Shown: one piece after another, positions 25,733 to 40,468 of the stretch
How positions within the stretch are numbered: the stretch's first letter is position 1
How the letters are laid out: every line of letters begins with the position of its first letter
Assembly (NCBI GenBank): GCA_964343135.1
Contig: CAYFGR010000002.1
Span: forward strand, 1 to 40,468
Reading direction: 5' to 3'
From: an uncultured Dehalococcoidales bacterium
GTDB lineage: Bacteria > Chloroflexota > Dehalococcoidia > Dehalococcoidales > JAUYDJ01
Length of the DNA stretch: 40,468 nt
Notes under the pieces: model-generated
Seen by the model: only the letters and a program-made list of their open reading frames with translations
The model's database searches: none
What the model was told of the DNA's origin: nothing
Position numbers and translations under genes: made by a program

Positions 25733-27580
25733 ATGACACATTATTTCTGTAGCTTGTCGTTTAGACTCCTGTTATCAAAACTTAAAGGTATTAATGTCCG
25801 TCTCTTTAAGTCAAATACCTCAGTTCCCCTGTTTATCCCCGTGTTAAGAAAGATTCCCCCTATTAAAACCAAGCTGGATAATATTGCTCAAGAGCCGGAT
25901 GTACATATCGGGGACTATAAAGGTCTTAATTATCGACTGAACAACGAGGCTCTGGAATGTACCGATTTTATCTATGAGAAATTAGGCTTGGAGGATTGCC
26001 ATTTCATTAAGATATACAATGAAAGATTTAAAACCAATAAACTTAAACCATTTGTTTTAAAATGGATTTCTATGTATGTCTTTGAGCTGTTAATTTGTCT
26101 TTACCGGATTCATCTTGATAGCCCCTCATTAAAGTTATTATATCTGGACGATAACTCCCTCAATCGGCATATTTATGAATGGTGGTACTGGAAAACGGGG
26201 GATATTATACAAATACAATGGCTGAAACAGAGTGATCTGAGAATTGGCTTGGCGACCTTAGCACTTAGTGCGTTGACATTTGTTTTTAGACCATTCTTCC
26301 GCGGGTTGTGCCTGCCGGCTAAACCCAAAAAATTCAAAATAATGAAGGAAGCAACGTGGGGACTGCAAAATCCCGTCTTTCGTGACGACTTTTTTATCGA
26401 CGGTGAAAAGCTGCTTAAACAAGATTTGTTGCTTTACACTTACGGTTCCCGTCATGAAGGTCGCACGTTTGCTTATAAGGATGCTCAAAATAGCGGTTAT
26501 CAATGTATCAACCGAACTAACCTTAAAATTCCCTTGAACCTTCTGTGCCAACGTTTATTTAAGTATCACTTCCTGTTACCGGTGGTCCTTATTCTTAAAA
26601 ATATTAAAAATAAGCGAAATTATCTCCTGAGAGAGTGGCTCACCGCGTTCCACGGAGCGGCCGTCAATTATGAGATCTTGCTGTCCCACTATCAAATCGG
26701 CCTTGATTTGAGTGTCAACGAGGCAAGCTTATCTCATATTCCGGAAACGATACTACTGAATAACTACGGCGCCAAGAGTGTTATTTTCCACTGGTCAGAT
26801 CTGCTCACTTATTATCATAGTGATGACGATTTGAAATCTTTTAATGTGTATTTGATATGGGGGAAGGCGCACTCTCACGGTAAACGATATTTTGTTGACA
26901 GCATGGTAGAAACCGGGTGCTGGCTGAAACACAACTTTGGCGAGTTCACCAGGAATAAAAAGAGGATTTATGAAAACTTGGGGTTACCCGTTAATTCCCC
27001 TAAGGTATTATTAGCCTTCTACGATACTACAATTGACCCTGATTTCCATTTTACTGAAGACGTATTACTGGATTTCTGGCAGCTAATGTTTGAAATTGTG
27101 GACGGAAACAAGAATGTCATTGGGATAATGAAACCTAAAGTGGCGGACAGAGTAAAGCACTTAAAGTTGTCGGATAAGGGTGATGAAATCTATAATAAGA
27201 TTAGGCAAAGGTGTTTGGAAAACGGACGGGTCTATTTTATAGATAACCCGAGTGAATTCGCGGTAACTGAAGTTATTGCGATATCAGACATAAATATAAC
27301 TATGGGAATGGGGAGTCCATCTACTATCGCTTTGTTATGCGGGAAAATTGGGCTATACTATGATACCACCGGAAGTGACTACCACCCGTTCACCCGGAGA
27401 TATAGAAAAAAACTGGTATTTGATAATAAAGGGGATTTGTTCTCTGTGGTCAGGAATATCACTGATGGCGCCTATAATCCTCTACCTGAGATTGACGAAG
27501 AACTATTAAGAGGATTCGACCAATTTCGGGATGATAAGGGCTTGGAAAGATTTAAACAGGCGCTGCTGGATAATCTATAG
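25733..27580 (+). CDS. 615-aa orphan protein, AT-rich; the C-terminal half is vaguely GT-B/capsule-transferase-like (function unknown)
   Basis: This is a long uninterrupted ORF in the most AT-rich part of the window. I recognise no motif with confidence. Segments such as VIFHWSDLLTYYHSDDD, VLLAFYDTT and SDINITMGMGSPSTIALLCGKIGLYYD are reminiscent of Rossmann-type sugar/phosphosugar transferases. No clear RBS precedes the ATG. Confidence 0.6.
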   Translation: MTHYFCSLSFRLLLSKLKGINVRLFKSNTSVPLFIPVLRKIPPIKTKLDNIAQEPDVHIGDYKGLNYRLNNEALECTDFIYEKLGLEDCHFIKIYNERFKTNKLKPFVLKWISMYVFELLICLYRIHLDSPSLKLLYLDDNSLNRHIYEWWYWKTGDIIQIQWLKQSDLRIGLATLALSALTFVFRPFFRGLCLPAKPKKFKIMKEATWGLQNPVFRDDFFIDGEKLLKQDLLLYTYGSRHEGRTFAYKDAQNSGYQCINRTNLKIPLNLLCQRLFKYHFLLPVVLILKNIKNKRNYLLREWLTAFHGAAVNYEILLSHYQIGLDLSVNEASLSHIPETILLNNYGAKSVIFHWSDLLTYYHSDDDLKSFNVYLIWGKAHSHGKRYFVDSMVETGCWLKHNFGEFTRNKKRIYENLGLPVNSPKVLLAFYDTTIDPDFHFTEDVLLDFWQLMFEIVDGNKNVIGIMKPKVADRVKHLKLSDKGDEIYNKIRQRCLENGRVYFIDNPSEFAVTEVIAISDINITMGMGSPSTIALLCGKIGLYYDTTGSDYHPFTRRYRKKLVFDNKGDLFSVVRNITDGAYNPLPEIDEELLRGFDQFRDDKGLERFKQALLDNL

Positions 27581-27615
27581 GTGCTGGCTTTTTCTACCAC
27601 TGAATCGGGTGCGAG

Positions 27616-28605
27616 ATGAAAATAAATGCAGGAATAATTGGATTCGGCAATATCGGTTTCATCTTTGATGAGGACCCAAAGCGGAAACAGGTCTCATCTC
27701 ATGCCGGTGCTTACCTGGCTTCTCCCAACGTAGAAATTGTGGCCGGAGCCGACTCTGACGCAACCAAGCTGAGCCGGTTTTCCAGGAGGTGTCCCCGGGC
27801 TGGGATATACCGGGATTACGGGGAAATGCTGAATGATAATAGGCTGGATATCGTGAGCATCTGCTCTCCAACCGCTTCACATTTTGAAATACTATCCCGG
27901 GTGGTAGATTCCGATGTACGGGCGATATTTTGTGAAAAACCACTGGCTTCACGAATTGAAGATGCTCGGCAAATGGTAGATATCTGCCAGGCGAAAAGTA
28001 TTATTCTGGCAGTTAACCACACCCGGCGATGGGATCAAAGGTACCGCCATGTAAAAGAATATATCGACCAGGGAAAAATCGGTGAGATAAGAAGCATCAG
28101 TGGCAACTATTCCGACAAGGTGTTTATGATAGGCACGCACCTTATAGATATGCTGAGGTATTATGCAGGAGATGTGGACTGGGTTGCTGGCGAGGGGGAA
28201 AATCCGGAATCTGACGACCCGGCGATATCCGGACTTATATTTTTCCGGAACGGGGCTAGGGGATTCATAACATGTAACGGTAAGAGAGAGAATCTCATCT
28301 TTGAAATCGATGTATTAGGCTCAGAGGGAAGAATCCGAATTGTAGATAATGGTTATCTTACCGAATTCTTTCGTTTCAATGAAAGTGACAGGTATTCCGG
28401 TTACCATGAATTGAAAAGACAGGCTGTGCCCGAAGTAAATGTGGTCCAGAATCCACTGGTTGTTGCCATTGAAAACATAATCGAGTGCCTTCAGGAAGAC
28501 GGCGAGCCAGCCTGTACCGGAGAAGATGGTTTGAAGTCCCTGGAGATAGCCGTGGCTCTTTGCGCGTCGGCAAGAAATAACAGTGAAAAGATAAAATTAT
28601 ACTAA
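27616..28605 (+). CDS. Gfo/Idh/MocA-family NAD(P)-dependent sugar oxidoreductase
   Basis: It has the N-terminal Rossmann MKINAGIIGFGNIG, the CEKPLA (EKP) motif, and AVNHTRRWD. Confidence 0.85.
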   Translation: MKINAGIIGFGNIGFIFDEDPKRKQVSSHAGAYLASPNVEIVAGADSDATKLSRFSRRCPRAGIYRDYGEMLNDNRLDIVSICSPTASHFEILSRVVDSDVRAIFCEKPLASRIEDARQMVDICQAKSIILAVNHTRRWDQRYRHVKEYIDQGKIGEIRSISGNYSDKVFMIGTHLIDMLRYYAGDVDWVAGEGENPESDDPAISGLIFFRNGARGFITCNGKRENLIFEIDVLGSEGRIRIVDNGYLTEFFRFNESDRYSGYHELKRQAVPEVNVVQNPLVVAIENIIECLQEDGEPACTGEDGLKSLEIAVALCASARNNSEKIKLY

Positions 28606-28654
28606 TGAACCCGGGGTATCAGATTACCGGTGTAATCGAGGAGATAGGGAATAA

Positions 28655-30016
28655 ATGGAAAAGTTAGCGCTGCTCGGGGGTAATCCGGTCAGGAAAGATC
28701 CATTTAGGAGTACCGTGGTCATTGATGAAGATGAAATATCTGCCGTTATGGATGTTTTAAAAGCGAAGGAGCTTTCCCGATTTATTGGCAGTTCATCACC
28801 GGACATAGAAGAGCAACTGGTTATGAATAGTGCCCAGGCTCTAAATTATGGCGGTCAGGGCTTTTCGTTCCTCGGGGGTAGAAAAGTAAGACAATTCGAG
28901 GCTGAGTTTGCCCAGTGCTTTGGTGTAAAATATGCCATCACCGTAAATTCAGCAACGTCCGGACTGTCTTTAGCTTTAGCCGCGGCTGGAGTCGGTCCGG
29001 GAGATGATGTGATTACAACGTGCCTGTCATTTAACGCTACCGGCACAAGCATATTACTTTTTAACTCTATCCCTTTGTTTGTGGATATAAGCGAGGAAAA
29101 TTTTTGCTTAAATCCACAAGAAGTCAGGAAGGCGATAACTCCCCAGACAAGAGCGGTTTTAGCTGTCCACCTTCTGGGTAATGCCGCGGATATGGATGCC
29201 ATCATGAATATCGCTCGAGAACATAATCTTGTCGTAATCGAAGATTGTGCCCAGGCGGCGGGGACCAGGCATGGCGGTCAATATGTGGGGACGATTGGGG
29301 ATATCGGTGTTTTTAGTTCACAGGAGCCTAAGCATATATCGACGGGAGAGGGAGGCATTGTCATCACGAACAATCCGCAATATGCCCGGAGATGCCGGCT
29401 TATCCGAAATCATGGTGAATCTATTCCCGATGACAGTACTCCTGTGGAGGATTTAGTCAACATTGTGGGCTGTAATTTCCGGATGACCGAGCTTACCGCG
29501 GCTGTTGGGAACGCTCAGTTAAAGAAGCTTTTCGAAAATAACCGGGTCAGAAGCGAAAATGCCAGATTCCTTGCCCGGGAACTCAATATATTCGAGGGTA
29601 TTGAAATACCCCCGGTAGTGTACAATGAGGAGTACGTAGTCCATGTACTCTCTATCCTGTATCATTCGGGCAAGGTTGGGGTATCCAGAGAGACATTTGT
29701 GAAAGCTTTGCGGGCAGAAGGAATCCCAGTTGGTACGGGATACGCCAGAATCATGCCGGATAATCCGCTATTTCTAAAAAAGATAGCCTACGGCAAGCAA
29801 CAATGTCCCTTCTCATGCCCGTATTACGGACGGGATGTGGATTACGCCGGTGGGCGGTACCCGGTTGCCCGGGATTTTATTAATAATAAGCAGATTTCCT
29901 TTCAGCTCATAAGCCGGCCGAATACTCTGGATGACATGAAAGATGTCGTAAAAGCATTTGAGAAGATTTACGCAAATCTGGAGCAACTGAAATCAGCGGA
30001 AGGTGAAAAATCTTAA
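28655..30016 (+). CDS. DegT/DnrJ/EryC1/StrS-family PLP sugar aminotransferase (long 453-aa form)
   Basis: Motifs are AITVNSATSGLSLALAAAGVGPGDDVIT, the IEDCAQAAG motif, and SSQEPKHISTGEGG with the catalytic Lys. It has N- and C-terminal extensions relative to the 380-aa paralog at 38669. Confidence 0.85.
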   Translation: MEKLALLGGNPVRKDPFRSTVVIDEDEISAVMDVLKAKELSRFIGSSSPDIEEQLVMNSAQALNYGGQGFSFLGGRKVRQFEAEFAQCFGVKYAITVNSATSGLSLALAAAGVGPGDDVITTCLSFNATGTSILLFNSIPLFVDISEENFCLNPQEVRKAITPQTRAVLAVHLLGNAADMDAIMNIAREHNLVVIEDCAQAAGTRHGGQYVGTIGDIGVFSSQEPKHISTGEGGIVITNNPQYARRCRLIRNHGESIPDDSTPVEDLVNIVGCNFRMTELTAAVGNAQLKKLFENNRVRSENARFLARELNIFEGIEIPPVVYNEEYVVHVLSILYHSGKVGVSRETFVKALRAEGIPVGTGYARIMPDNPLFLKKIAYGKQQCPFSCPYYGRDVDYAGGRYPVARDFINNKQISFQLISRPNTLDDMKDVVKAFEKIYANLEQLKSAEGEKS

Positions 30017-30027: not shown

Positions 30028-30903
30028 ATGATGAATTTGCTTATGTCTGATATGCAAAAATATATGACATTGACCGATTGTCCTTACTGCCATACTACCC
30101 CGGCAACTGAGATGGCTAAGAGTCCGCGAGTGGTAAGATGTAATACCTGTGGTCTCTGGAGATTTTCACCTCGTATGAATAAAGAAGGACAGGTTGCCTA
30201 TCTTGAGAAATTCAATGATGGAATTGAAACGGCAAATCAGGAGAATCCTTTAAACTACTGGGAGGGTAATCTCGACGAGGTTCAGGAATTAAAGCGGAAT
30301 TTCCGTGAGATGGTTTCAGACGGTACAATCCTGGATGTTGGCACCGGTGAGGGGGCATTTCTAGCTACTCTCCAAAATGCCGGCGCTTTCCGGGCAATCG
30401 GGCTTGAGCCCCTGGAAAAATTGGCGCAATGCGGTAAAAGCGCCGGGTTAGATATTCATGTCGGCAGATTTGAATCCGATGGCATGCCACCGGCGTTAAT
30501 GGGAACAGTATTCGATATCGTCTGCTTTCGAGAAAGCGTTTATTACCTGCCGGATTTAAGGCAAGCTTTCAACTTGTTGCGTCGTATCCTGCGTCCGGGT
30601 GGTGGTTTATATCTCCATTGTCATGTTCCCACCAGTATTTATTACTGGAAAAACCGGAACTATTTATCCCGGTATGGACCAAACGTATCCGGAATGCCCA
30701 CCGTTAAAGCGCTTACCAATATCCTGATTAAGGAAGGTTATGAAATCCTTAAGGCAGGTTATCTCCGGCGCAACGTTTTACATACCCTTGGCTTGCCATT
30801 TGCCAATCTTCGTGTCGGGGGAATAATAGACAGCGCTTTATGGCCAGTAGTGCACCGCCTGGGGAAGGCTGACCGAGCCGTTATTTTTGCCAGGAGATTA
30901 TGA
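30028..30903 (+). CDS. Class I SAM-dependent methyltransferase with N-terminal zinc ribbon
   Basis: The N-terminal Zn ribbon is CPYCHT...CNTCGLW. SAM motif I is ILDVGTGEGAF. LRPGGGLYL is also present. Confidence 0.8.
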   Translation: MMNLLMSDMQKYMTLTDCPYCHTTPATEMAKSPRVVRCNTCGLWRFSPRMNKEGQVAYLEKFNDGIETANQENPLNYWEGNLDEVQELKRNFREMVSDGTILDVGTGEGAFLATLQNAGAFRAIGLEPLEKLAQCGKSAGLDIHVGRFESDGMPPALMGTVFDIVCFRESVYYLPDLRQAFNLLRRILRPGGGLYLHCHVPTSIYYWKNRNYLSRYGPNVSGMPTVKALTNILIKEGYEILKAGYLRRNVLHTLGLPFANLRVGGIIDSALWPVVHRLGKADRAVIFARRL

Positions 30904-30961: not shown

Positions 30962-31672
30962 ATGAACGTAGTTGGTGTCATCCATGCCCGGGGTGGTTCC
31001 GTCAGGGTTCCTTTAAAGAATATTAAAGAGTTAGCCGGGAAACCGCTGATAGCTTATATTATCCAGGCGGCATTAGCCGCCGGGACTATAAATCGAGCTA
31101 TCGTCTCCAGCGACCACCCTGAGATAATAAAGATATCTAAAATGTATGGCGCTGAGGTTCCCTTTGTCCGACCTAAAGATATTTCCGAAGACGTTCCTTC
31201 TGAGCTTGTTACTCAGCACGCGGTCAATTATCTGGAGAAGGAAGAGGGCTACCATGTTGACATTGTGGTTACTCTTCAACCAACCACGCCTTTCTGTCTA
31301 CCGGAGGATATCGATGGGTGCGTCCACGAACTGATGGCTTCAGATGCGGATTCAGTAATCAGCGTTTGTAATATTTCGGAGAGACCGGAATGGATGTTTT
31401 ACACGGATGAATCGGGCTATGCGCATAATTTTCTTGAGAAAAAGATTGAGGGGGATACGGGAATATCTCAGAAACTGCCCCGTCTCTATATTCCCAATGG
31501 TGGTATCTACGCTACTAAGCGGGATGTCTTGTTTAACCAGGGTGTTATAATTGGTAGGAAGACCCGGCTATGGGTTTTGCCGCGAGAACGCTCTGTAGAT
31601 ATTGATGAACCCCTCGATTTTTTGCTTGCCGAGTTCCTGATTAACCGGGGATTTAAGGCGACAACAGAGTAA
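30962..31672 (+). CDS. neuA: Acylneuraminate cytidylyltransferase-family CMP-nonulosonate synthetase
   Basis: IHARGGSVRVPLKNIKELAGKPLIAYII, LQPTTPF and IPNGGIYA fit the family. The symbol is family-level only (could be LegF/PseF). Confidence 0.85.
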   Translation: MNVVGVIHARGGSVRVPLKNIKELAGKPLIAYIIQAALAAGTINRAIVSSDHPEIIKISKMYGAEVPFVRPKDISEDVPSELVTQHAVNYLEKEEGYHVDIVVTLQPTTPFCLPEDIDGCVHELMASDADSVISVCNISERPEWMFYTDESGYAHNFLEKKIEGDTGISQKLPRLYIPNGGIYATKRDVLFNQGVIIGRKTRLWVLPRERSVDIDEPLDFLLAEFLINRGFKATTE

Positions 31673-31715
31673 GAAATATAAAAACAGGGTCAAAGTAATC
31701 TGGAGGTAGTAACTA

Positions 31716-31904
31716 ATGTCACAGTATTTAAAGGGAAATTACAGACTCCCGAAGAAAGTGAATCCTGGGGTTAATAAGAATCAGCCGACCACAGCGGAGA
31801 AATTTGAGCAAGAAACTCTGACTAAGCTGGGGGGTAGTATTGCCTTTGTCATGAAACCCAAGACCTTTGTCTGGGACGGCGAGGAGAATGAAAAGACTGT
31901 CTAA
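31716..31904 (+). CDS. 62-aa hypothetical protein
   Basis: An excellent RBS (GGAGG) lies 9 nt before the ATG. The sequence is MSQYLKGNYRLPKKVNPGVNKNQPTTAEKFEQETLTKLGGSIAFVMKPKTFVWDGEENEKTV. The 3' end overlaps the next gene by 17 nt. No recognisable family. Confidence 0.4.
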   Translation: MSQYLKGNYRLPKKVNPGVNKNQPTTAEKFEQETLTKLGGSIAFVMKPKTFVWDGEENEKTV

Positions 31905-32892
31905 GACTCAACTCGAAATTATTGCCCGGCAAACACTGGAGAAGACGGCTGAAATAGGTTGGGAGAACGCTCAGAAAAACCGGTCTTATATCAGGAAAAC
32001 AATCCTTGATCTGCCCCGGGAGGCGCCTACCCGTGATGCTGACTCTGCCGTCATTGTTTCGGCAGGGCCCAGCTTGCACCGGCGTCATCCCGCGCCAGCT
32101 ATTGTAGCTTCGAAATTCAAGGGGCCAATTATCGCGGCGGATGGTGCGTTAGGTTACTGCCTTCGTAACGGTCTTGTCCCCGGTTATGTGGTTACGGTTG
32201 ACCCTCATCCAACGCGTATCATTCGATGGTTCGGTGACCCCGCCCTTGCCCAGCGAGAGCCTGACGACTACTTTCAGCACCAAGATTTAGACCCGGCTCT
32301 GACCCGGCAAGAAAAAGCCCGTAATGAGGAACTTCTCGACCTGGTAAATCGGTATGGCAAAAGTATTAAGGTAATTATTTCCACCAGTGTCGACCTGGAA
32401 CTGACCCTCCGGTGCCTGGAAGCCGGTATGGAGCTATATTGGTGGAATCCCCTCTACGATGACTACGATAGTCCCAACAGTTACTCGCGTCGGGTCTACC
32501 AGCTTACCAGGGTGCCCTGTATGGTGACCGGGGGGAACTGTGGGACCTCGGCGTGGGTTTTTGCTCATGCGGTTCTCCACAGCAAACGAACGGCTCTGCT
32601 CGGTATGGACTTGAGTTATCATCCGGACACACTGGTTCAAAATACCCAATATTACAGACAGCTGGTAGAACTCTTTGGTGACCGGGCTGACGAGGCTTTT
32701 ATCCGGGTCTACAACCCTTACCTTAAGGAAACGTGGTATACCGACCCTACCTACTACTGGTATCGGCAGGGCCTGCTTGAATTGGCGAGGCAAGCTGATT
32801 GCGAGACCTATAATTGTACCGAAGGGGGGATTGTTTTCGGGAAGGGAATTAAATTCATCCCCTTCAAAGATTTTCTGGAAAGATTTAGTTAA
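31888..32892 (+). CDS. DUF115 (Maf / MptE-like) protein, candidate nonulosonic-acid transferase
   Basis: SAVIVSAGPSL....PIIAADGALGYCLRNGLVPGYVVTVDPH is the hallmark of the DUF115/MAF_flag10 fold. I chose the ATG at 31888; the track TTG at 31867 is also possible. Confidence 0.7.
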   Translation: MKRLSKTQLEIIARQTLEKTAEIGWENAQKNRSYIRKTILDLPREAPTRDADSAVIVSAGPSLHRRHPAPAIVASKFKGPIIAADGALGYCLRNGLVPGYVVTVDPHPTRIIRWFGDPALAQREPDDYFQHQDLDPALTRQEKARNEELLDLVNRYGKSIKVIISTSVDLELTLRCLEAGMELYWWNPLYDDYDSPNSYSRRVYQLTRVPCMVTGGNCGTSAWVFAHAVLHSKRTALLGMDLSYHPDTLVQNTQYYRQLVELFGDRADEAFIRVYNPYLKETWYTDPTYYWYRQGLLELARQADCETYNCTEGGIVFGKGIKFIPFKDFLERFS

Positions 32893-32907
32893 GGTGGGAG
32901 GCCGCAA

Positions 32908-34404
32908 GTGGCAAAAGTGCTCTTCATTAACCCGGTTCTCCGTCAGGAAGACGCACCACGGCATGTTCCTTACGGCATGGCATTACTGGTCGCGCTTGTG
33001 CGGGAAGCAGGGCATAAGGTCCAGGTTTTTGATGCTAACGCCTGGCGACCCACCGACCAGGTACTTAGTGAAGTGTTGGGTGCTGATGCGTGGGACGTAA
33101 TTGCCACCGGTGGGCTTATTACGAGCTACGGGTATATAAAAAAGGTAGTCAAAAGTGCCCGTAATATATGTCCTGAATCACTCATCGTAGCCGGCGGGGG
33201 CTTCCTCACTGCCATTCCCCATGACATTATGGAGCTTCTGCCTGAAATTGATATCGGTGTGGTCGGAGAGGGCCTGTTAACCTTCCCCGAGATACTTAAG
33301 ATGGCGACTAGTAAAGACGGTGACTGGTCCAACGTGCCGGGGATCATCTGGAGAAATAAGGGAGGACGCTCTCACCTTAATCCGGCGAGGCCTCTCATGG
33401 AGGACCTTGACTCTCTGCCTTACCCCGCCTGGGAAGCCTTCCCCCTGCATATCTACTTTCGTAACAGCTCCCTTTTGATGAGTGAAGAAGCGATGCTGGC
33501 CAGGCGGAGGCTCGACATTATCACGAGCTATGGATGTCCGTTTGGATGCCGTTTTTGTTTCCACCTGGGCCTTAGCGGTGAACTCGAAACTTCAGATACT
33601 CCGGCACGGCGGGAGGTTATCTTCACTCGCAAACGGAATATCCGGTGGCACAGCCCGAAATATGTTGTCGGCCTGATTAAATATGCGCGCCAATGGTTTA
33701 AGGTCGACTTTATCTCGTTTCTTGATGAGAACTTCATTTGTTTGAATAAATACACTCACGGGCAGTGGATACTTGAATTTCACGATCTTTGGATTAAAGC
33801 TGGCTTACAGCCTCAGTGCACTCGTGAAGGTCGACCACACGATGCCAAATACTGCCACGGCGTTCACTGGGGTACTTCCGCCCATGCGGCTCTGGTCGAT
33901 GCTCCAACGTTAAATAAAATGCGAGAGGTAGGCTGTTCTTACCTTGATTACGGGTTAGAGTCCTTCTCCGACCGGATTCTGAAATCAATAGCCAAAGGCT
34001 CAACCAGTAAACTGAATGAGAGGGCAATCAGGCTCACACTGGAAGCGGGCATTAGACCGATTCCTAATCAGATTATTGGCTCTCCGGAAGAAGACTTCGA
34101 CAGTATTAAAGCTAATGTCCTGGCTTGGGAGCGGCTCGGGATTCAGACTTATCCCTTTTTGGCCACCCCCTATCCCGGCTCGGAATGGTACTTTAAGTAT
34201 AAAAAGCAGATTTTAAGGCAATACGACGGCAACCTGGACGCATTTCTTCTGGACCTGGGTGATGCCACCAAACTGACGGCGGTAATATCCAAGAATTTCA
34301 ATGCCGTTGAGCTTTTGGGACTTCGGGAACTAATGGTGAACCGTGACCTGAAGCGTATTAACGAGTATGAACAAATATGGCAAAAATCACGAGGGTCGCT
34401 GTGA
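32908..34404 (+). CDS. B12-binding-domain radical SAM enzyme (class B-like)
   Basis: The N-terminal cobalamin-binding-type Rossmann is KVLFINPV...GMALLVALVREAGHKVQVFD...IATGG. The CX3CX2C motif SYGCPFGCRFC lies at 33535..33558. It uses a GTG start 6 nt after GGTGGGAGG. Confidence 0.85.
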   Translation: MAKVLFINPVLRQEDAPRHVPYGMALLVALVREAGHKVQVFDANAWRPTDQVLSEVLGADAWDVIATGGLITSYGYIKKVVKSARNICPESLIVAGGGFLTAIPHDIMELLPEIDIGVVGEGLLTFPEILKMATSKDGDWSNVPGIIWRNKGGRSHLNPARPLMEDLDSLPYPAWEAFPLHIYFRNSSLLMSEEAMLARRRLDIITSYGCPFGCRFCFHLGLSGELETSDTPARREVIFTRKRNIRWHSPKYVVGLIKYARQWFKVDFISFLDENFICLNKYTHGQWILEFHDLWIKAGLQPQCTREGRPHDAKYCHGVHWGTSAHAALVDAPTLNKMREVGCSYLDYGLESFSDRILKSIAKGSTSKLNERAIRLTLEAGIRPIPNQIIGSPEEDFDSIKANVLAWERLGIQTYPFLATPYPGSEWYFKYKKQILRQYDGNLDAFLLDLGDATKLTAVISKNFNAVELLGLRELMVNRDLKRINEYEQIWQKSRGSL

Positions 34405-35459
34405 TGATTACGGTAAAAATAGCGGGTAGACTGGTGGGCGATGGCGAGCCTTGCTTTATCATTGCCGAAGCGGGGGTTAATCACAACGGTGATATTAAGC
34501 TGGCCCGGAAGTTGATTGATGTTGCCAAAGAAGCTGGTGCCGATGCCATAAAATTTCAAACCTTTAAGGCGGAGGAGCTGGTAACCAGAAATGCCGAAAA
34601 GACCGCGTATCAAAGGGAAACTACGCCCGCCGAGGAATCCCACTATGATATGGTAAGGAAACTGGAGCTTGCCAGGAAAGATTTTAGAGAGTTATTTGCC
34701 TATGCTCAAGAAAAAGGAATGATATTCCTCTCCACTCCGTTTGATAAAGGTAGTGTGGATTTGCTGGACGAACTGGGGGTTACCGTGTTTAAGGTCGGCT
34801 CCGGAGAGATTACCAATTTCCCCTTGCTCAAGTATATTGCCCGGAAAAGCAGGCTGATTATTTTATCTACCGGTATGGCCACCCTGCCCGAAATTGAGGC
34901 GGCCCTGGAGACGATTAAAGGGGGAGGCAGTAATGATATTATACTGCTCCACTGTGTCTCCAGCTATCCGGCAAAAGTAGAAGATATGAATCTCCGGACG
35001 ATGCAGACATTAAGGGACACATTCAAGCTACCGGTCGGCTTGTCTGACCATTCGCGGGGCATTACAATACCGGTAGCGGCGGTTGCGTTGGGAGCCTGCC
35101 TGATTGAAAAGCATTTCACCCTGGATAATAGCCTTCCGGGTCCTGACCACCAGGCATCGCTGGAGCCGGACGGACTAAAGCAGATGGTAACCGCGATAAG
35201 AGATGTGGAAAAGGCAATGGGTGATGGGATAAAGAGACCTACCGTGGTCGAGGAAGCAATTAAAAAGGTAGCTCGGCGCAGCATAGTGGCTGGGGGAGAT
35301 ATTCCCCGGGGAACAGTGATTACCAGGGAGATGCTAGATATTAAAAGACCCGGGACTGGGCTTGAGCCAAAGTACCTGGGAGAGATTATCGGGAGAACCG
35401 CGGAAGTCACGATAAAGAAGGATGAAATCATAACCATAAGTCAGTTACGGGGTAAGTAG
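34404..35459 (+). CDS. neuB: NeuB-family nonulosonate (N-acetylneuraminate/legionaminate/pseudaminate) synthase with C-terminal SAF domain
   Basis: Motifs are CFIIAEAGVNHNGDIKLARKLIDVAKEAGADAIKFQTF, KVGSGEITNFPLL and GLSDHS. The C-terminus is IKRPGTGLEP...I. The ATG overlaps the upstream stop (TGATG). Family-level symbol. Confidence 0.88.
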   Translation: MITVKIAGRLVGDGEPCFIIAEAGVNHNGDIKLARKLIDVAKEAGADAIKFQTFKAEELVTRNAEKTAYQRETTPAEESHYDMVRKLELARKDFRELFAYAQEKGMIFLSTPFDKGSVDLLDELGVTVFKVGSGEITNFPLLKYIARKSRLIILSTGMATLPEIEAALETIKGGGSNDIILLHCVSSYPAKVEDMNLRTMQTLRDTFKLPVGLSDHSRGITIPVAAVALGACLIEKHFTLDNSLPGPDHQASLEPDGLKQMVTAIRDVEKAMGDGIKRPTVVEEAIKKVARRSIVAGGDIPRGTVITREMLDIKRPGTGLEPKYLGEIIGRTAEVTIKKDEIITISQLRGK

Positions 35460-36452
35460 GTGAAGGTCGTATTCATTGGTATCGTTAGTATCGGGTGGCA
35501 CTGTCTCAAGTCACTGTTGGAAAGCGGAGCTAATATCGTGGGGATAATCACGGCGGATAAGCAGGAAATGATAAAAAGATCACACATGCACGCCGATTAT
35601 TTCAGCGAGTTTGAGGACTTAGCCCAGGAATACGGCGCCCCTTTGTATAAGATAAGGGATGTCAGTATTCCACTCGACGCCAAAAGAATCAGGGAGCTAC
35701 AGCCAGACATAATCTTCTGCATAGGCTGGCCTCAGATGGTCAAAAAAGAACTTCTGGAAATCCCGAAACACGGGTGCATTGGTATTCATCCAACGCTGCT
35801 ACCGGAGCGTCGGGGAGGCGCCCCGATTAACTGGTGCCTGATAGACGGCTTGACCAAAAGTGGAGTGACACTCTTCTATTTTAGCGAAGGGGTGGATTCC
35901 GGCGATATTATTGCTCAAAGGGAGTTAGAGATAGCCCTAGAAGATACCGCCGGTAAAGTTCTAGACAAGGTGACCGATACCTCTGTGGAACTCATCAAGG
36001 AGTGTTATTCCCTTCTGGGAAAGGGAAAAGCCCCCCGTCTGCCTCAGGATGATACCAAAGCCACTTACACCCCCCGCCGCCGCCCCGAAGACGGGGCTAT
36101 TGATTGGAGTAAAACCTCATTCTCCATTTATAACTGGATAAGAGCTTTGACTTTGCCTTTCCCGGGGGCTTTTACTTATTGGAACGGAGAAAAGATAATT
36201 GTATGGGAATCAGAACTATTAATGGGATATAAGCCACGATTTGGTGCTCAACCGGGCGAGATTTTAGATATTATGGATAATAATGGAGTAGCCGTCGCCA
36301 CCGGGGACAGTTGTATTCTGATTAAGACCGTTGAAGCCGGTGGACAAACCATGAACAGTTTTGAATTGATACAGAAATACAGGATTACAACTAGCGCTAT
36401 TCTGGGGGAGAAAAAACATGGCTGGAGTGCTGGTAATCGCACCTCACCCTGA
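35460..36452 (+). CDS. Fmt/ArnA-like formyltransferase (probable sugar N-formyltransferase)
   Basis: Motifs are GIHPTLLPERRGGAPINWCLIDG and TLFYFSEGVDSGDIIAQ, plus a C-terminal Fmt-like beta-barrel domain. It is distinct from the housekeeping fmt at 8286. The GTG start directly follows the upstream TAG. Confidence 0.8.
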   Translation: MKVVFIGIVSIGWHCLKSLLESGANIVGIITADKQEMIKRSHMHADYFSEFEDLAQEYGAPLYKIRDVSIPLDAKRIRELQPDIIFCIGWPQMVKKELLEIPKHGCIGIHPTLLPERRGGAPINWCLIDGLTKSGVTLFYFSEGVDSGDIIAQRELEIALEDTAGKVLDKVTDTSVELIKECYSLLGKGKAPRLPQDDTKATYTPRRRPEDGAIDWSKTSFSIYNWIRALTLPFPGAFTYWNGEKIIVWESELLMGYKPRFGAQPGEILDIMDNNGVAVATGDSCILIKTVEAGGQTMNSFELIQKYRITTSAILGEKKHGWSAGNRTSP

Positions 36453-37086
36453 CGATGAAGTATTGGGTTGTGGGGGGACGATTGTAAAACATGTCTCGGA
36501 AGGAGATGAGGTTTATCTCTGCATCGTCACCAAAGCCTATCCCCCGGAATGGTCTGAAAATGAGATACGGGAGAGAAGAGATGAGGTGCTCAAAGTGAGC
36601 AAAATACTCGGTATAAAAAAGACCTGTTTCCTTGATTTGCCTACGGTAAAACTGGATACTATACCGCAAAAGGAGCTTAATGACCTCATCGGTCAGGTAG
36701 TAAACCAGGTGCAGCCGGGCATCGTTTATATTCCCCACCGGGGAGACGCTAATCGGGATCACCGGTTGGTTTTCGAGGCGGCGATGGTGGCTACAAGGCC
36801 AAAACCGGGCGCAACCGTCAGTAAAGTCCTCTGCTACGAAGCGCTATCCGAGACAGAGTGGGTAGCACCCTTTGTTCAAAATGTCTTTATGCCCAACGTA
36901 TATGCCGATATCTCCGCGGTACTGGAGATTAAGCTGAAAGCGATGTCAGAATATCGGCTTGAGCTTAAAGAATTCCCTCATCCGCGTTCCGTGGAAACTC
37001 TGACGGCTCTGGCTCAGATGAGAGGGGCTGCGGTTGGAGTAACCGCTGCCGAAGCTTTTATGCTGGTAAGGGAGATAAGGATATAA
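36418..37086 (+). CDS. PIG-L/LmbE-family N-deacetylase
   Basis: VLVIAPHPDDEVLGCGGTI and HRGDANRDH are zinc-binding signatures. It overlaps the upstream gene by 35 nt. Confidence 0.85.
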   Translation: MAGVLVIAPHPDDEVLGCGGTIVKHVSEGDEVYLCIVTKAYPPEWSENEIRERRDEVLKVSKILGIKKTCFLDLPTVKLDTIPQKELNDLIGQVVNQVQPGIVYIPHRGDANRDHRLVFEAAMVATRPKPGATVSKVLCYEALSETEWVAPFVQNVFMPNVYADISAVLEIKLKAMSEYRLELKEFPHPRSVETLTALAQMRGAAVGVTAAEAFMLVREIRI

Positions 37087-38235
37087 ATGAAGAAAGTAGC
37101 GGTAGTTACCGGAAGCAGAGCCGAATATGGCATCCTCTATCCGGTGCTGAAGGCAATAGAAGCTCACCCGGAGTTAAGGTTGTCTCTGGTCGTTACTGGA
37201 ATGCACCTTTTGCCTGAATTTGGCTACACCGTCCGAGAGATTGAGAGTGGTGGCTTCAAAGTTGATGCCAGAGTGGATATGCTGCTGGGCAGTGATACGC
37301 TGGGAGCAATGGTAAAATCAGTAGGTATGGGCATTATTGGCATGGCACAAACCTGGGAGCAACTAAATCCGGATATTATTTTGGTGCCGGGAGACAGGGG
37401 AGAGCCTCTGGCGGCGGCTATTGCCGGAGCATATATGAACATTCCGGTAGCCCACATTCATGGTGGGGATAACCCAAGGGCAGGCCTTGATGAATATGCT
37501 CGTCATGCCATCACCAAGCTTGCCCATATTCACTTTCCGGCCACCGGGACGAGTGCGGAAAGAATTATCAAGATGGGTGAGGATGAGTGGAGGGTGCACA
37601 TGGTAGGCTCCCCGACGCTGGACGTTATTCTGAATGAGAGTTTACTTTCAGCCGAAGCGCTGACGGAAAAGCTTGGGATAGATTTATCTCGGCCGTTGAT
37701 TTTGCTCGTTCAGCATTCGGTAACTACTCAGGTGGACGAGGCAGCAAGGCAAATGAGAGAAACCTTAGAGACGATTGTGGAAATGGGCAATCCCACTGTT
37801 CTGATATACCCTAACTCGGATGCGGGCGGCCGGCGGATGATAGAAGTGATAAAGGAATATGAAAAATTTAACTTTCTTACAACCTTTAAGAGTTTACCTC
37901 GTAAAGAATATCTTAGCCTGATGAAGGCAGCCGGTGTCATGGTGGGAAATTCCAGCAGCGGGATAATTGAAGCGCCTTCCCTCGGATTACCGGCGGTGAA
38001 TATTGGTATCCGCCAGGAGGGAAGGGAGCGGGGTGAGAATGTCATTGACGTTGGTCATAATAACCGGGAAATAGTAACAGGGATAGAAAGAGCCCTCACT
38101 GATGAAGGATTCCTGAAAGCAGTCAAAAAGTGCCAAAGTCCCTACGGGGACGGCAGGGCAGGGTCCAGGATAGCCGAAATTCTGAGCCAAATAGAGATTA
38201 CTCCCCAGTTGCTCCAGAAGAAAATGACATATTAA
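37087..38235 (+). CDS. neuC: NeuC-family hydrolysing UDP/GDP-N-acetylhexosamine 2-epimerase
   Basis: Motifs are KKVAVVTGSRAEYGILYPVLKAI, GDRGEPLAAAIAGAYMNIPVAHIHGGD and MVGNSSSGIIEAPSLGLPAVNIG. The ATG abuts the upstream TAA. Family-level symbol (could be LegG). Confidence 0.88.
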   Translation: MKKVAVVTGSRAEYGILYPVLKAIEAHPELRLSLVVTGMHLLPEFGYTVREIESGGFKVDARVDMLLGSDTLGAMVKSVGMGIIGMAQTWEQLNPDIILVPGDRGEPLAAAIAGAYMNIPVAHIHGGDNPRAGLDEYARHAITKLAHIHFPATGTSAERIIKMGEDEWRVHMVGSPTLDVILNESLLSAEALTEKLGIDLSRPLILLVQHSVTTQVDEAARQMRETLETIVEMGNPTVLIYPNSDAGGRRMIEVIKEYEKFNFLTTFKSLPRKEYLSLMKAAGVMVGNSSSGIIEAPSLGLPAVNIGIRQEGRERGENVIDVGHNNREIVTGIERALTDEGFLKAVKKCQSPYGDGRAGSRIAEILSQIEITPQLLQKKMTY

Positions 38236-38251
38236 ATTGCGGAGACCTGGT

Positions 38252-38659
38252 ATGGATAAGAGGTTCACAGACTGGAAATACCCGGAATTTGACGAGAAGG
38301 GAATGACCCGGTGGAACTGGATGTGCCAGTATCATGAGAATTTGAAGCTGGGTAAGAATACTGATATCGGGGCATTTACCTATATAAATGCCAAATATGG
38401 AGTTGAAATACAGGAAGATGTGCAAATCGGCTCCAATTGCTCCATATATTCCTGGTCTACAATTGACGACAAAAGAGGCAAAGTAACGATAAAGAAAAAT
38501 GCTAAAATAGGTAGCCACAGTCTTATCATGCCTGGCGTTACCCTGGGCGAAAATTCCGTTGTGGGCGCATTCAGTTTCGTAACCAAAGATGTCCCCGATA
38601 ATGTAACGTTTTTCAGTATGCCTAAAAAAGTTATTGGACAGCGAAAGCAAAGTAAATAA
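38252..38659 (+). CDS. Left-handed beta-helix (hexapeptide-repeat) acetyltransferase
   Basis: Hexapeptide repeats are IGAFTYINAKYGVEIQEDVQIGSNCSIYS and IGSHSLIMPGVTLGENSVVGAFSFV. The ATG at 38252 (GGAG 7 nt upstream) is preferred over the TTG at 38237. Confidence 0.8.
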   Translation: MDKRFTDWKYPEFDEKGMTRWNWMCQYHENLKLGKNTDIGAFTYINAKYGVEIQEDVQIGSNCSIYSWSTIDDKRGKVTIKKNAKIGSHSLIMPGVTLGENSVVGAFSFVTKDVPDNVTFFSMPKKVIGQRKQSK

Positions 38660-38668
38660 GGACAAAAA

Positions 38669-39811
38669 ATGGATTGGAAAATTCCTCTCTTCAAGATATA
38701 TTGGGATGAAGAAGATGTCCGGATGATAACGGATACCATCCGGAGGGGTATGTCCTGGACAATCGGTCCCCATATCGAAAAGTTTGAGGCGATGCTTGCC
38801 GATTATGTCGGAACAAAATACGCCGTGGTATTCAACTCGGGAACCTCCGCCCTGCATGCCGCGCTATTAGCCCATGGCATCGGGGAGGGGGACGAGGTTA
38901 TTGTACCTTCATTCACCTTCATAGCCACGGCAAATGCGCCTCTTTTTGTCGGTGCCCAGCCAGTATTTGCCGATATCGAGGAGGAAACTTACGGGCTCGA
39001 ACCAGAGGATGTGAAGAGAAAGATTACCGGAAAAACTAAGGCAATAATAGTGGTACATTATGGGGGGTGTCCCTGTAAAATCAGGGAAATACGGGAAATT
39101 GCTGAAGACCACCGGTTAGTCTTGATTGAGGACGCTGCGGAATCTCTCGGAGCGACGATTGATGGTGATAAAGTGGGCACCTTTGGGGCTTCGGCGATGT
39201 TCAGTTTTTGCGGGCCCAAGATAATCACCACTGGGGAGGGGGGGGTACTCGTAACCGACTTAAGTAGTGTCCTCGAAAAGATGCAACTCATCAGGTCACA
39301 TGGTCGACTTCAGACACAGAATTACTTTTCATCGGCAGAATATCTTGATTATATAACAGTGGGCTACAATTTCAGGATGTCTGACATCACCGCCGCGCTG
39401 GGAATAGCGCAACTTAAAAAGATAGCACAAATAATTAAAATGAGAAGAGAAAATAGCGCTTATATCACCCAAAAATTGAGCGAGATAGCGGAAATTAAGG
39501 TTCCATTGCCTCCTAAAGAGAGCTATCATATATACCAAATGTATTCTATAGAAATCAGGGACGGTAAGAAAACCAGAGATGACCTCGCTAGTTACCTAAA
39601 TAATAAGGGAATAATGACTAAAGTCTACTTTGAACCGGTCCATCAAACCTATTTTTATAAGCACGAACTTGGCTATGACGATAAGCTGCCGGTTACGGAA
39701 CAGGTATCTTCAAGAATACTAACTCTGCCTATGTATCCATCACTCATAGAGGAAGAGATGAATTTTATTGTGGAGGAAGTTGTTGCTTTCTTTTCATCGG
39801 TAAATAAATGA
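38669..39811 (+). CDS. DegT/DnrJ/EryC1/StrS-family PLP sugar aminotransferase (PseC/LegC/PglE-like)
   Basis: Motifs are AVVFNSGTSALHAALLAHGIGEGDEVIVPSFTFIATANA, IEDAAESLG, and FSFCGPKIITTGEGG with the catalytic Lys. Confidence 0.88.
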   Translation: MDWKIPLFKIYWDEEDVRMITDTIRRGMSWTIGPHIEKFEAMLADYVGTKYAVVFNSGTSALHAALLAHGIGEGDEVIVPSFTFIATANAPLFVGAQPVFADIEEETYGLEPEDVKRKITGKTKAIIVVHYGGCPCKIREIREIAEDHRLVLIEDAAESLGATIDGDKVGTFGASAMFSFCGPKIITTGEGGVLVTDLSSVLEKMQLIRSHGRLQTQNYFSSAEYLDYITVGYNFRMSDITAALGIAQLKKIAQIIKMRRENSAYITQKLSEIAEIKVPLPPKESYHIYQMYSIEIRDGKKTRDDLASYLNNKGIMTKVYFEPVHQTYFYKHELGYDDKLPVTEQVSSRILTLPMYPSLIEEEMNFIVEEVVAFFSSVNK

Positions 39812-39824
39812 GAGGGTAAATAGA

Positions 39825-40468
39825 TGGTAGACACATTTCGAGATAAGAATATATTAATTACCGGTGGTACCGGCTCTATCGGCAGTGAGATAGCTCGAAA
39901 GATTTTACGATACGAACCCAAGGTGGTAAGGATTTTCAGCAATGATGAAAATGGGCTATTCACTCTGGAGCAGGAGCTGGGGGGTAATCTTAAAGTAAGA
40001 TTCTTATTGGGGGATATTAGAGACAAGGAAAGACTCGGGAAGGCTATGGAGGGTATCGATATTGTATTTCATGCCGCTGCTTTAAAGCATGTCCCCTTCT
40101 GCGAGTACAATCCTTTTGAGGCGATAAAGACCAACGTTATCGGTACTCAGAATGTCCTTGAGGCAAGCTTGAATGGAGAAGTGCAAAAAGTAGTTTCTAT
40201 TAGCACGGACAAGGCGGTTAATCCAGCCAGCACCATGGGAGCTACCAAGCTACTGGCAGAAAAACTGGTTATCGATGCCAATTATTATAAGGGCGATAAG
40301 AGAAAGGCCGTTTTTTTCTCAGTGAGATTCGGCAACGTTATCAGCTCGCGGGGCTCGGTTATCCCGTTTTTTGCCGAGCAAATAACAAAGGGGGGGCCAG
40401 TGACTATCACCGACTTAAGGATGTCGCGTTTTATTATGTCTCCCAACCAAGTGATTGATTTGCTCTTT
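39825..40468 (+). CDS. CapD/PseB/PglF-type NAD-dependent nucleotide-sugar 4,6-dehydratase (3' end outside the window)
   Basis: It is absent from the ORF track because no stop is reached. My translation is MVDTFRDKNILITGGTGSIGSEIARKIL...LLGDIRDKERL...IVFHAAALKHVPFCEYNPFEAIKTNVIGTQNVLEA...VVSISTDKAVNPASTMGATKLLAEKL (SDR TGxxGxxG and YxxxK-type motifs). A GAGAGGG RBS lies upstream. Confidence 0.8.

Follow-up and report, generated by a model that had tools for sequence, protein, structure and literature searches.

In the Leg/ptm locus of Campylobacter jejuni the genes for legionaminic acid (Leg) synthesis (LegB, C, H, G, I and F), together with PtmE, F and A, are followed by a Maf gene. In Bacillus subtilis it was shown genetically that SpsM starts a legionaminic pathway linked to uridine diphosphate (UDP), and the sps genes (SpsM, C, D, G, E, F) were described as a six-enzyme route serving the spore crust (PMC7439481). 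In a recent preprint on Candidatus Kuenenia stuttgartiensis, nonulosonates activated with cytidine monophosphate (CMP) and carrying one free and one formylated amine, along with a species heavier by 14 Da, were assigned to a Leg-type cluster with a deacetylase and a formyltransferase (bioRxiv 10.64898/2026.04.20.719630). Likewise 5-N-formyl-legionaminic acid is found in the archaeon Halorubrum sp. PV6, whose Leg locus has a predicted formyltransferase gene between legG and neuD (PMC6137143). Here we describe a gene cluster on a stretch of 40,468 nucleotides from an uncultured Dehalococcoidales bacterium (contig CAYFGR010000002.1 of assembly GCA_964343135.1). This stretch, referred to below as the window, is the entire contig, and in its table of open reading frames (ORFs) the cluster appears as 15 co-directional genes on the plus strand, from position 25733 to the contig end at 40468. 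It belongs to a known class, the Leg-type nonulosonate clusters serving a non-flagellar surface, and part of its tailoring set has recent precedent; the new part is a triad consisting of a 62-residue protein, a short DUF115 relative of the Maf glycosyltransferases (mini-Maf) and a B12-binding radical S-adenosylmethionine (SAM) enzyme. On balance we favor the reading, drawn from the sequence, that a single operon would build, tailor and probably export a CMP-activated legionaminic-type sugar for a non-flagellar surface glycan, and that the triad would modify the CMP-sugar.

The cluster shares with the C. jejuni locus its NeuC-type and NeuB-type enzymes and its CMP synthetase, and differs from it by having no PtmE, no LegB-type dehydratase, no flagellin and no full-length Maf in the window; to our knowledge C. 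jejuni has neither a B12 radical-SAM enzyme nor the small ORF. The likeness to the B. subtilis sps genes extends to the UDP-linked route, a PseB/CapE-like dehydratase with a T-x9-M-x3-K residue triad, an aminotransferase, an acyltransferase, a NeuB-type synthase, a CMP synthetase and a non-flagellar surface, which there is the spore crust and here the surface of a Dehalococcoidales bacterium; as described, the six-enzyme route is without a radical-SAM enzyme, mini-Maf, small ORF, deacetylase or formyltransferase (PMC7439481). As in the Kuenenia cluster, a deacetylase and a formyltransferase stand between Leg-type genes, to which the window adds a methyltransferase, whereas neither a radical-SAM enzyme nor cobalamin is mentioned anywhere in that preprint (bioRxiv 10.64898/2026.04.20.719630). 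With Halorubrum the cluster has in common the Leg-type pathway, the formyltransferase gene and a non-flagellar target, in that case the S-layer glycoprotein; the archaeal system differs in being N-linked, no deacetylase is mentioned for it, and no radical-SAM, Maf or small ORF is among the genes listed (PMC6137143).

Four genome scans were made, for each of which at most 80 matches were listed, and the carriers given here are those among the matches listed. When the radical-SAM protein of the window (26 loci) and a DUF115 alignment (A1) were used as seeds, 93 distinct loci were recovered after the removal of duplicates, 89 with the small ORF and 87 with the radical-SAM gene. An alphaproteobacterial DUF115 alignment (A4) led to 71 loci, some repeating earlier ones, all of which had the small ORF and 69 the radical-SAM gene, and among 65 further loci, counting new ones only, that were found with the radical-SAM protein of Paramagnetospirillum caucaseum the small ORF was present in 63 and DUF115 in 64. 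In about 80% of the loci the flanks of the triad include a CMP synthetase, and NeuB and NeuC are each found in roughly half to two thirds. Over these three independent seed sets the small ORF, the mini-Maf and the B12 radical-SAM gene are a near-invariant triad tied to CMP-nonulosonate synthetase genes. The triad occurs in at least some 200 species-level genomes from more than a dozen phyla, its carriers including Dehalococcoidia, Anaerolineales, Nitrospirota, Nitrospinota, Methylomirabilota/Rokubacteria, Planctomycetota, Omnitrophota, Elusimicrobia, Acidobacteria, Latescibacteria, Myxococcota, Yanofskybacteria of the candidate phyla radiation (CPR), and alpha-, beta- and gammaproteobacteria, with SAR11 single cells among them. 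Cultured carriers are P. caucaseum SO-1, Rhodospirillaceae LM-1, Kordiimonadales IMCC3096, Colwellia chukchiensis and Methylobacter tundripaludum SV96. A literature search for links of radical-SAM enzymes, cobalamin or DUF115 to Maf or to nonulosonic, legionaminic or pseudaminic acid returned nothing relevant, and no accessible paper describing the triad was found.

The loci compared are labeled below where they have to be told apart: L001 and L024 are two syntenic Dehalococcoidales metagenome-assembled genomes (MAGs), L134 a Methylocystaceae MAG, L144 a Rhodospirillales locus, L019 a marine alphaproteobacterial genome, and L003 an uncultured bacterium whose proteins resemble those of Nitrospirae loci. 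L144 has a canonical LegB-C-G-I-H, PtmE-F-A, LegF cluster, kept in full order, and the triad is attached to it in the place where C. jejuni has its Maf gene. A split arrangement was seen in the Dehalococcoidia genome RS371 (L065, 2212-13956), in which the small ORF and the radical-SAM gene come first, followed by NeuB, NeuC, a formyltransferase and a PIG-L gene and then by DUF115 and the CMP synthetase; further downstream the small ORF occurs a second time.

The smallest member of the triad, called as a gene also in Tara and other marine assemblies, did not match any Pfam or NCBIfam family. Its family comprises 131 representatives at 50% identity, and the credible ones are all stand-alone proteins of 45-120 residues. 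Among 89 unique sequences G7, N8, G40 and S41 are invariant, and L5, F30, E31, A34, L38, G39, I42, F44, V45, K47 and W53 are conserved in at least 90%, forming an N-terminal motif L-x-G-N-[YF] and a C-terminal motif F-E-x-x-A-L-x-K-L-G-G-S-I-A-F-V-x-K...W that are joined by a charged linker of about 20 freely varying residues. None of the 26 loci that the radical-SAM protein had recovered at first was without the small ORF. It usually stands before DUF115 and is placed between DUF115 and the radical-SAM gene in L015 and L021; over all loci it may come before, between or after its partners, yet it is adjacent to them in nearly all. The only long matches, three proteins of 2102-2371 residues that would have been fusions, included two repetitive sequences; these two were inspected, judged to be spurious low-complexity matches of probably eukaryotic origin, and discarded. 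Two readings of the L-G-G-S segment were also set aside. As a double-glycine leader it has a hydrophobic spacing that is off by one from the consensus, and the exporters tested were without C39; a carrier-protein site would call for a longer protein, and what follows the serine has the look of a strand and not of a helix.

The second member, g05, most likely starts at ATG 31888, giving the 334 residues that match the lengths of its homologues and the gene calls in other assemblies. It has 1798 homologues and keeps 55-60% identity across phyla. The best PDB fold for its AlphaFold2 (AF2) model (pLDDT 89.7) is that of the Maf glycosyltransferase 5MU5, matched in its central part (E 1e-8, query-normalized TM-score 0.57, an alignment of 316 columns to a target of 632 residues), and the second best is the archaeal HPPK MptE 8SD5, a pterin pyrophosphokinase. 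The central MAF_flag10/MptE-like fold is thus common to g05 and the PseD/Maf enzymes, from which g05 differs in being half as long and far more conserved across phyla, in having no N- or C-terminal domains, including the tetratricopeptide repeat (TPR) region seen at the C-terminus of the full-length Maf of L003, and in being paired with the small ORF and the radical-SAM gene. It does not show the architecture of a full-length Maf (about 600-900 residues with flanking acceptor-binding domains): against the PseD model it scored 39 bits, the cut-off being 670, over residues 57-112 only, whereas the true Mafs of L003 and L237 align to positions 2-627 and 226-574 of the 640 in the model.

In the earlier note a dedicated transfer system was predicted from the combination of genes that includes this short Maf-like protein, and one might propose that it glycosylates a surface protein of the Dehalococcoidales, for instance the TIG-domain proteins encoded at 2427-5680, with the radical-SAM enzyme and the small ORF aiding recognition or modifying the target. 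Such a role, which we think improbable, agrees with the best structural match being a Maf flagellin glycosyltransferase and with the position of the C. jejuni Maf gene, which follows the Leg genes in the same place. It also agrees with L019, where four flagellin genes flank the triad and no full-length Maf was seen in the locus. The earlier note had further described the setting as non-flagellar, and this holds for the window and for three syntenic Dehalococcoidales loci, none of which has a flagellar gene, but not for the module as a whole, as flagellin or flagellar genes lie near the triad in L019, L003 and L239 and a flagellin gene is found 5.5 kb from it in Methylobacter. Against a role as terminal transferase, Nitrospira, Colwellia and L003 each have, besides the mini-Maf, a full-length PseD-like Maf in the locus itself. 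Identities of 55-60% that extend to non-flagellated CPR, SAR11 and Dehalococcoidales fit an enzyme acting on a small molecule better than one recognizing divergent acceptors, the N- and C-terminal domains of Maf are missing, and this locus and several others have a GT-B candidate transferase, namely g00 or PFTS-like proteins distantly related to it. Since a full-length Maf coexists with it, and because of its very high conservation and its presence in non-flagellated lineages, the mini-Maf does not appear to be simply a terminal protein glycosyltransferase; as a near-invariant triad member it is unlikely to be the dedicated transfer system, and it is probably not the terminal transferase.

The third member, g06, is 48-80% identical in 26 loci of many phyla. 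Its NCBIfam matches are far under the cut-offs (ApyD 93, BchE 85 and HpnJ 72 bits, with TIGR03975 also among the nearest), and the nearest solved structures are those of the B12-dependent C-methyltransferases TokK and TsrM. Like the class B radical-SAM methyltransferases (TokK, TsrM, Fom3, GenK) it combines an N-terminal B12-binding domain with a CxxxCxxC core; in contrast to them it reaches no family cut-off, and methyl transfer is its predicted activity. Fom3 also acts on a CMP-linked substrate, and our literature search found no paper on a class B radical-SAM methyltransferase acting on a nonulosonate. Our best guess for the chemistry of the triad is a cobalamin-dependent C-methylation of the CMP-sugar, and we suggest tentatively, well short of a firm expectation, that this might be the first radical-SAM C-methylation of a nonulosonic acid, yielding a branched or 10-carbon sugar. 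In the cultured magnetotactic bacterium Rhodospirillaceae LM-1 (L131/L194, about 10008-12802) two B12 radical-SAM genes were found in tandem after the mini-Maf.

The same three genes could also be read as a peptide system, in which the small ORF encodes the substrate, the radical-SAM enzyme modifies this peptide, the mini-Maf glycosylates it with the CMP-sugar and an ABC exporter possibly carries it out; what is made would be a peptide bearing the nonulosonate, or a molecule derived from the peptide. We consider this unlikely, even though several features of the triad are in keeping with it. The small protein is a stand-alone product of 45-120 residues with N- and C-terminal motifs around a variable charged linker and with one serine, one asparagine and two glycines invariant; the nearest NCBIfam matches of g06 include ApyD and TIGR03975, radical-SAM enzymes of RiPPs, peptides that are made on the ribosome and modified after translation; and the mini-Maf is a glycosyltransferase fold without the Maf flanking domains, which must have a different job wherever there is a full-length Maf as well. 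In Rokubacteria and Magnetospira an ABC exporter stands right beside the triad. Known analogues would be mycofactocin, with its peptide, radical-SAM enzyme and glycosyltransferase, and bottromycin, with an N-terminal core, a follower peptide and B12 radical-SAM C-methylases. It seems quite unlikely that, more specifically, the B12 radical-SAM enzyme C-methylates or otherwise modifies the 62-residue protein and the mini-Maf attaches a legionaminic-type sugar to it, at Ser41 or Asn8 for example, as a widespread class of sialic-acid-like glycopeptides or of sugar derivatives built on a peptide scaffold. No peptidase, RiPP recognition element or C39 domain was detected in the window genes and the adjacent exporters tested, and the hydrophobic spacing before G-G is one position off the double-glycine leader consensus. 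The peptide is 40-70% identical across phyla, which is unlike most RiPP cores, although PqqA and MftA behave similarly, and the triad sits in sugar biosynthesis loci that serve flagellin in flagellated hosts.

The modification of the CMP-sugar by the triad, which we prefer, presupposes a route that makes this sugar. Families were assigned by profile searches of Pfam and NCBIfam, and the NCBIfam equivalog cut-offs were used for specific function. Every family predicted in the earlier note was matched, including all six of the 5,7-diamino-nonulosonate route: GFO_IDH_MocA, two DegT proteins (453 and 380 residues), Methyltransf_23/11, CTP_transf_3, MptE-like/DUF115, B12-binding with Radical_SAM, NeuB with SAF, Formyl_trans_N with Formyl_trans_C, PIG-L, Epimerase_2, Hexapep and Polysacc_synt_2. 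The NeuB- and NeuC-like proteins both pass their equivalog cut-offs. The synthase g07 reached 475 bits with TIGR03569 (NeuB_NnaB, cut-off 400), a model that does not separate N-acetylneuraminic acid synthases from Leg synthases, and 325 bits with TIGR03586 (PseI, cut-off 340). The epimerase g10 reached 445 bits with TIGR03568 (NeuC_NnaA, cut-off 236), as compared to 129 with the non-hydrolyzing WecB (cut-off 210). The acyltransferase g11 matched the C-terminal part of NeuD/PglB/VioB with 63 bits; its slot in L024 (15315-15902) is taken by a second, short formyltransferase of 195 residues. The aminotransferase g12 scored 321 bits with PseC and 281 with the LegC family, both under the cut-off, and for g11, g12 and g04, that is the acyltransferase, the C4 aminotransferase and the CMP synthetase, no Leg- or Pse-specific equivalog cut-off was reached. 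The truncated dehydratase g13 (full-length counterparts in L001 and L024 have 337-341 residues) is of the PseB/CapE/Pen type and not of the PglF or LegB type, with NCBIfam scores of 256 for PseB, 206 for FnlA and 74 for LegB, and PDB scores of 233 for Pen/CapD 6BWC, 194 for PseB 2GN4 and 121 for PglF. It carries the SpsM-type residue triad T128-x9-M138-x3-K142. These matches support the view that the operon would encode a complete route to a CMP-activated 5,7-diamino-nonulosonate.

From the NeuC-type enzyme it had been suggested in the earlier note that the product is legionaminic-like. This is still the best reading, as the NeuC and NeuB models are passed, PseI fails, and neither a PseG-type hydrolase nor a GNAT PseH was found with Pfam and NCBIfam among the 15 cluster genes; the PseB-type dehydratase leaves the stereochemistry unsettled. 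Because the dehydratase is of the PseB/CapE/Pen type, and retention or inversion at C5 is not readable from sequence, the stereochemistry rests on the precedent of the B. subtilis SpsM. That pseudaminic acid (Pse) or another C5-inverted isomer is the product instead seems to us very unlikely. In its favor, the best models for g13 are PseB, Pen and CapE, that for g12 is PseC and that for g04 is PseF. Against it, all three Pse-model scores are under their cut-offs, PseG and PseH are missing, the synthase fails PseI and passes NeuB_NnaB, hydrolyzing epimerases of the NeuC type belong to Leg/Neu routes, and a Leg route can, on the example of SpsM, be served by an enzyme like PseB. The window has neither the CBS-nucleotidyltransferase (PtmE) nor the LegB-type dehydratase, both of which are present in many related loci of other phyla, and its route is therefore probably linked to UDP and not to guanosine diphosphate. 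A UDP-linked Leg-type core is accordingly the reading that we regard as best, with its stereochemistry not settled.

The additional genes had been seen in the earlier note as an unusually dense tailoring set. The accessory families are indeed present, but their combination is less singular than was thought, given the Kuenenia precedent, the standard presence of oxidoreductases in Leg loci (PtmF is a 326-residue oxidoreductase and PtmA a short-chain dehydrogenase), and the recurrence of the full set, comprising formyltransferase, PIG-L, methyltransferase, PFTS-like protein and ABC exporter, in Methylocystaceae L134 and of part of it in SAR11 single-cell genomes. The PIG-L deacetylase and the formyltransferase, whose genes g09 and g08 overlap in the window, co-occur in L065, L066, L134 and L221, and this part has direct precedent in the Leg-type loci of Kuenenia and Halorubrum with their formylated products. 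The window has its housekeeping fmt elsewhere, at 8286-9290. Relatives of the methyltransferase g03 were also found in some loci outside the Dehalococcoidales, L134 being one example. A different modification is predicted where a WbuX-type N-acetyl sugar amidotransferase (375 bits, cut-off 203) with HisF- and HisH-like partners accompanies the triad, as it does in about 20-40% of the loci depending on the seed (for example L017, 11570-14500, L056, L064 and L149); since this set is present, acetamidino-modified sugars are predicted in those loci. The window is without it.

It is less clear where g01 and g02 belong. The best full-length NCBIfam match of g01 is the archaeal UDP-N-acetylglucosamine (UDP-GlcNAc) 3-dehydrogenase, at 108 bits with a cut-off of 450, and the best PDB relatives of g02 are 8GYH and 2-deoxy-scyllo-inosose aminotransferases. 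Pairs of Gfo and DegT enzymes classically give 3-amino sugars, WbpB/WbpE and GnnA/GnnB being the systems to compare. It is conceivable, if on the unlikely side, that g01 and g02, perhaps together with g03, supply the glycan backbone with a hexose aminated at C3 or in some other way and have no part in tailoring the nonulosonate; since no normal nonulosonate ring could be formed from a 3-amino hexose, these genes are more easily placed in such a separate branch. This is opposed by the position of the pair directly upstream of the CMP synthetase in 27-31 of the 93 related loci, from several phyla, by its occupation of the PtmF/PtmA slot of canonical Leg loci, and by the Nitrospira loci, in which no other aminotransferase was seen. 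The pair may be part of the core supply route or may make a separate amino sugar.

Put together, the favored operon model would proceed as follows. The SpsM/PseB-type g13 would convert UDP-GlcNAc to a 4-keto-6-deoxy sugar, g12 would transaminate C4 and g11 would N-acylate the resulting amine, after which the NeuC-type g10 would remove UDP and epimerize C2, the NeuB-type g07 would condense the product with phosphoenolpyruvate, and g04 would add CMP. By analogy with Kuenenia, the translationally coupled g09 and g08 would turn an N-acetyl group into a free or formylated amine at the level of the nucleotide sugar; g03 would add a methyl group, and g01 and g02 may oxidize and then transaminate a further position of the sugar or a precursor. 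The mini-Maf would bind the CMP-sugar and g06 would carry out a cobalamin-dependent modification, most likely a C-methylation at an unactivated carbon, either in the sugar or in its N-acyl group, with the 62-residue protein as a putative obligate subunit or adaptor. The finished sugar would then be transferred by g00.

Several points weigh against this model, each step of which is read from family membership and gene context. The enzyme g06 scores above the cut-off of no characterized radical-SAM family, and not every B12 radical-SAM enzyme is a methylase. The small protein is built like a peptide substrate, with two short conserved motifs and a variable linker, and in about one sixth of the loci the flanks retrieved with the triad contain an ABC exporter, which in several lies directly beside it. 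That g13, g12 and g04 all score best with models of the Pse pathway speaks against a firm assignment of the stereochemistry. In the 8-kb flanks of the Nitrospira loci no aminotransferase was detected apart from the g02-type DegT protein, and g02 may for this reason be a core and not an extra enzyme. A 10-carbon CMP-ulosonic acid has been reported in Magnetospirillum gryphiswaldense, and g06 was considered as its maker; the idea was dropped, as this species was absent among the matches listed in the four scans, one of them seeded with P. caucaseum, while P. caucaseum itself was present.

For the transfer step, the 615-residue g00 is on the evidence of its model a better candidate than the mini-Maf. 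It had no match in the Pfam copy searched and only a precomputed match to PF27878 (PFTS_polysacc) that is marked weak. Among its 37 homologues the few with a source name come from Dehalococcoidales or subsurface metagenomes. The AF2 model (pLDDT 87.8) has its best PDB folds among GT-B enzymes, namely OtsA, OGT, WecB and TagF, the last a polymerase using CDP-glycerol. The residues H551-P552-F553 are nearly invariant and are followed in the window by T-R. In Nitrospirota and deltaproteobacterial loci the radical-SAM gene has genes for distantly PFTS-like proteins after it. Because the window is the whole contig, and also the longest contig that carries g00 and the small ORF, the genes downstream of it have to be read from L001 and L024, in which genes for a fused ABC exporter and for another CTP_transf_3 protein come after the dehydratase; by this comparison an ABC exporter and a second CTP_transf_3 gene probably lie just past the window edge.

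Table 1. Genes of the nonulosonate cluster and tRNA genes of the window.
Feature	Position	Strand	Evidence and remarks
tRNA gene	997-1068	-	Rfam
tRNA gene	7404-7478	+	Rfam
g00, 615-residue PFTS-motif protein, GT-B fold, candidate transferase	25733-27580	+	TIGR04417 PFTS_polysacc 36 bits (cut-off 100), C-terminus only
g01, Gfo/Idh/MocA NAD-dependent sugar oxidoreductase	27616-28605	+	Pfam GFO_IDH_MocA N and C domains
g02, 453-residue DegT-family pyridoxal phosphate-dependent aminotransferase	28655-30016	+	DegT_DnrJ_EryC1 307 bits
g03, SAM methyltransferase with N-terminal Zn-ribbon	30028-30903	+	Methyltransf_23/11/25; CPYC...CNTC in translation
g04, CMP-nonulosonate synthetase	30962-31672	+	CTP_transf_3; best NCBIfam PseF 145 bits (cut-off 206)
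Small ORF, conserved 62-residue protein, first triad member	31716-31904	+	GGAGG 8 nt upstream; 17-nt overlap with g05 ATG
g05, 334-residue mini-Maf (DUF115/MptE-like), second triad member	31888-32892	+	PF01973 partial, 51 bits (cut-off 34.6)
g06, B12-binding radical-SAM enzyme, third triad member	32908-34404	+	PF02310 53.6 bits, PF04055 48.9 bits; CPFGCRFC motif
g07, NeuB/LegI-type nonulosonate synthase	34404-35459	+	NeuB and SAF; alternative in-frame ATG 34377
g08, sugar N-formyltransferase, ArnA/Fmt-like	35460-36452	+	Formyl_trans_N and C; PRK06988 225, ArnA 215 bits
g09, PIG-L-family N-deacetylase	36418-37086	+	PF02585 93 bits; BshB1-like 81 bits
g10, NeuC/LegG-type hydrolyzing 2-epimerase	37087-38235	+	Epimerase_2 301 bits
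g11, short hexapeptide-repeat acyltransferase	38237-38659	+	Hexapep; start TTG 38237 or ATG 38252
g12, 380-residue DegT aminotransferase	38669-39811	+	DegT 385 bits; predicted to act at C4 of the 4-keto intermediate
g13, UDP-GlcNAc 4,6-dehydratase, PseB/CapE/SpsM type, cut by contig end	39824-40468	+	Polysacc_synt_2 274 bits

The layout of the cluster (Table 1) had been read in the earlier note as one long operon starting at 27616, with gaps of 58 nt or less. The gene for g00 lies on the same strand, 35 nt upstream of 27616, and is part of the same series. The four junctions quoted (TGATG at 34402-34406, TAG|GTG at 35457-35462, the 35-nt overlap of g08 and g09 at 36418-36452 and TAA|ATG at 37084-37089) are exact; the dehydratase ATG is at 39824 and not at 39825. 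The gap limit is true only when the 62-residue ORF is counted, as otherwise 194-215 nt separate the CMP synthetase from DUF115. The spacing agrees with a single operon, and this inference rests on spacing only, because the promoter-like and terminator-like sites inside the cluster were not more numerous than expected from shuffled sequences. A search of the whole window with Rfam at the gathering threshold returned only two tRNAs and no cobalamin riboswitch or other RNA in the gap 31672-31888; an RNA element there was rejected, as Rfam is empty at this place and the gap contains the 62-residue ORF. Two antisense ORFs on the minus strand, one of 219 residues over the acyltransferase and aminotransferase genes (38198-38857) and one of 176 residues over DUF115 (32434-32964), were treated as spurious, the translation of the former being compositionally odd.

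The closest genomes are Dehalococcoidales MAGs, and the same 14-gene order was found in two of them (L001 and L024) with 58-82% identity. In L024, the closest relative, genes for ATP sulfurylase and APS kinase lie directly upstream of the PFTS gene (102-2577), which would make sulfation possible, and in L001 a GT4-like glycosyltransferase gene and a second, unrelated B12 radical-SAM gene are located upstream of it (28-2757). Identical copies of the small ORF are present on Tara and other marine metagenome contigs. Three of these contigs (L241, L242 and L243), from independent assemblies, end 993 nt into the DUF115 gene, which hints at a strain-variable breakpoint inside the island.

The first 25 kb of the window are made up of housekeeping genes near oriC (dnaA, gyrB, obg, hisS, relA/spoT, lexA, dinB, pyrF, fmt, nadD). 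The minimum of the cumulative GC skew adjoins dnaA (9537-10907; surroundings about 9000-12000), with gyrB, obg and nadD close by, and since dnaA sits at this minimum the sugar island would be only about 15 kb away from the probable replication origin. The G+C content falls from about 0.54 to 0.40 at the boundary of pyrF and g00 (25000-28000) and is back to about 0.5 by the DUF115 and radical-SAM genes, which points to a 5' part of the island that was acquired more recently or varies more. Two overlapping plus-strand ORFs, at 2427-3959 (510 residues) and 3815-5680 (621 residues), each have an IPT/TIG domain; they may be one frameshifted gene, and their products are candidate surface proteins and possible targets of glycosylation.

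Nonulosonic acids shape the recognition of bacterial surfaces by phages, predators and immune systems, and their chemical diversity is known far better from mass spectrometry than from genetics. In the window, an abundant marine and apparently non-flagellated lineage invests 15 genes in what we read as a tailored legionaminic-type sugar. The interest of the locus rests less on the density of its tailoring genes than on the triad, which is widespread, tightly conserved and present in cultured carriers. If the radical-SAM enzyme acts on the sugar, this would be the first radical chemistry in the biosynthesis of sialic-acid-like sugars and could explain some of the unassigned CMP-sugar masses of environmental bacteria; should its substrate be the small protein, the module would represent a glycopeptide system of a new kind, extending from SAR11 to Nitrospira.

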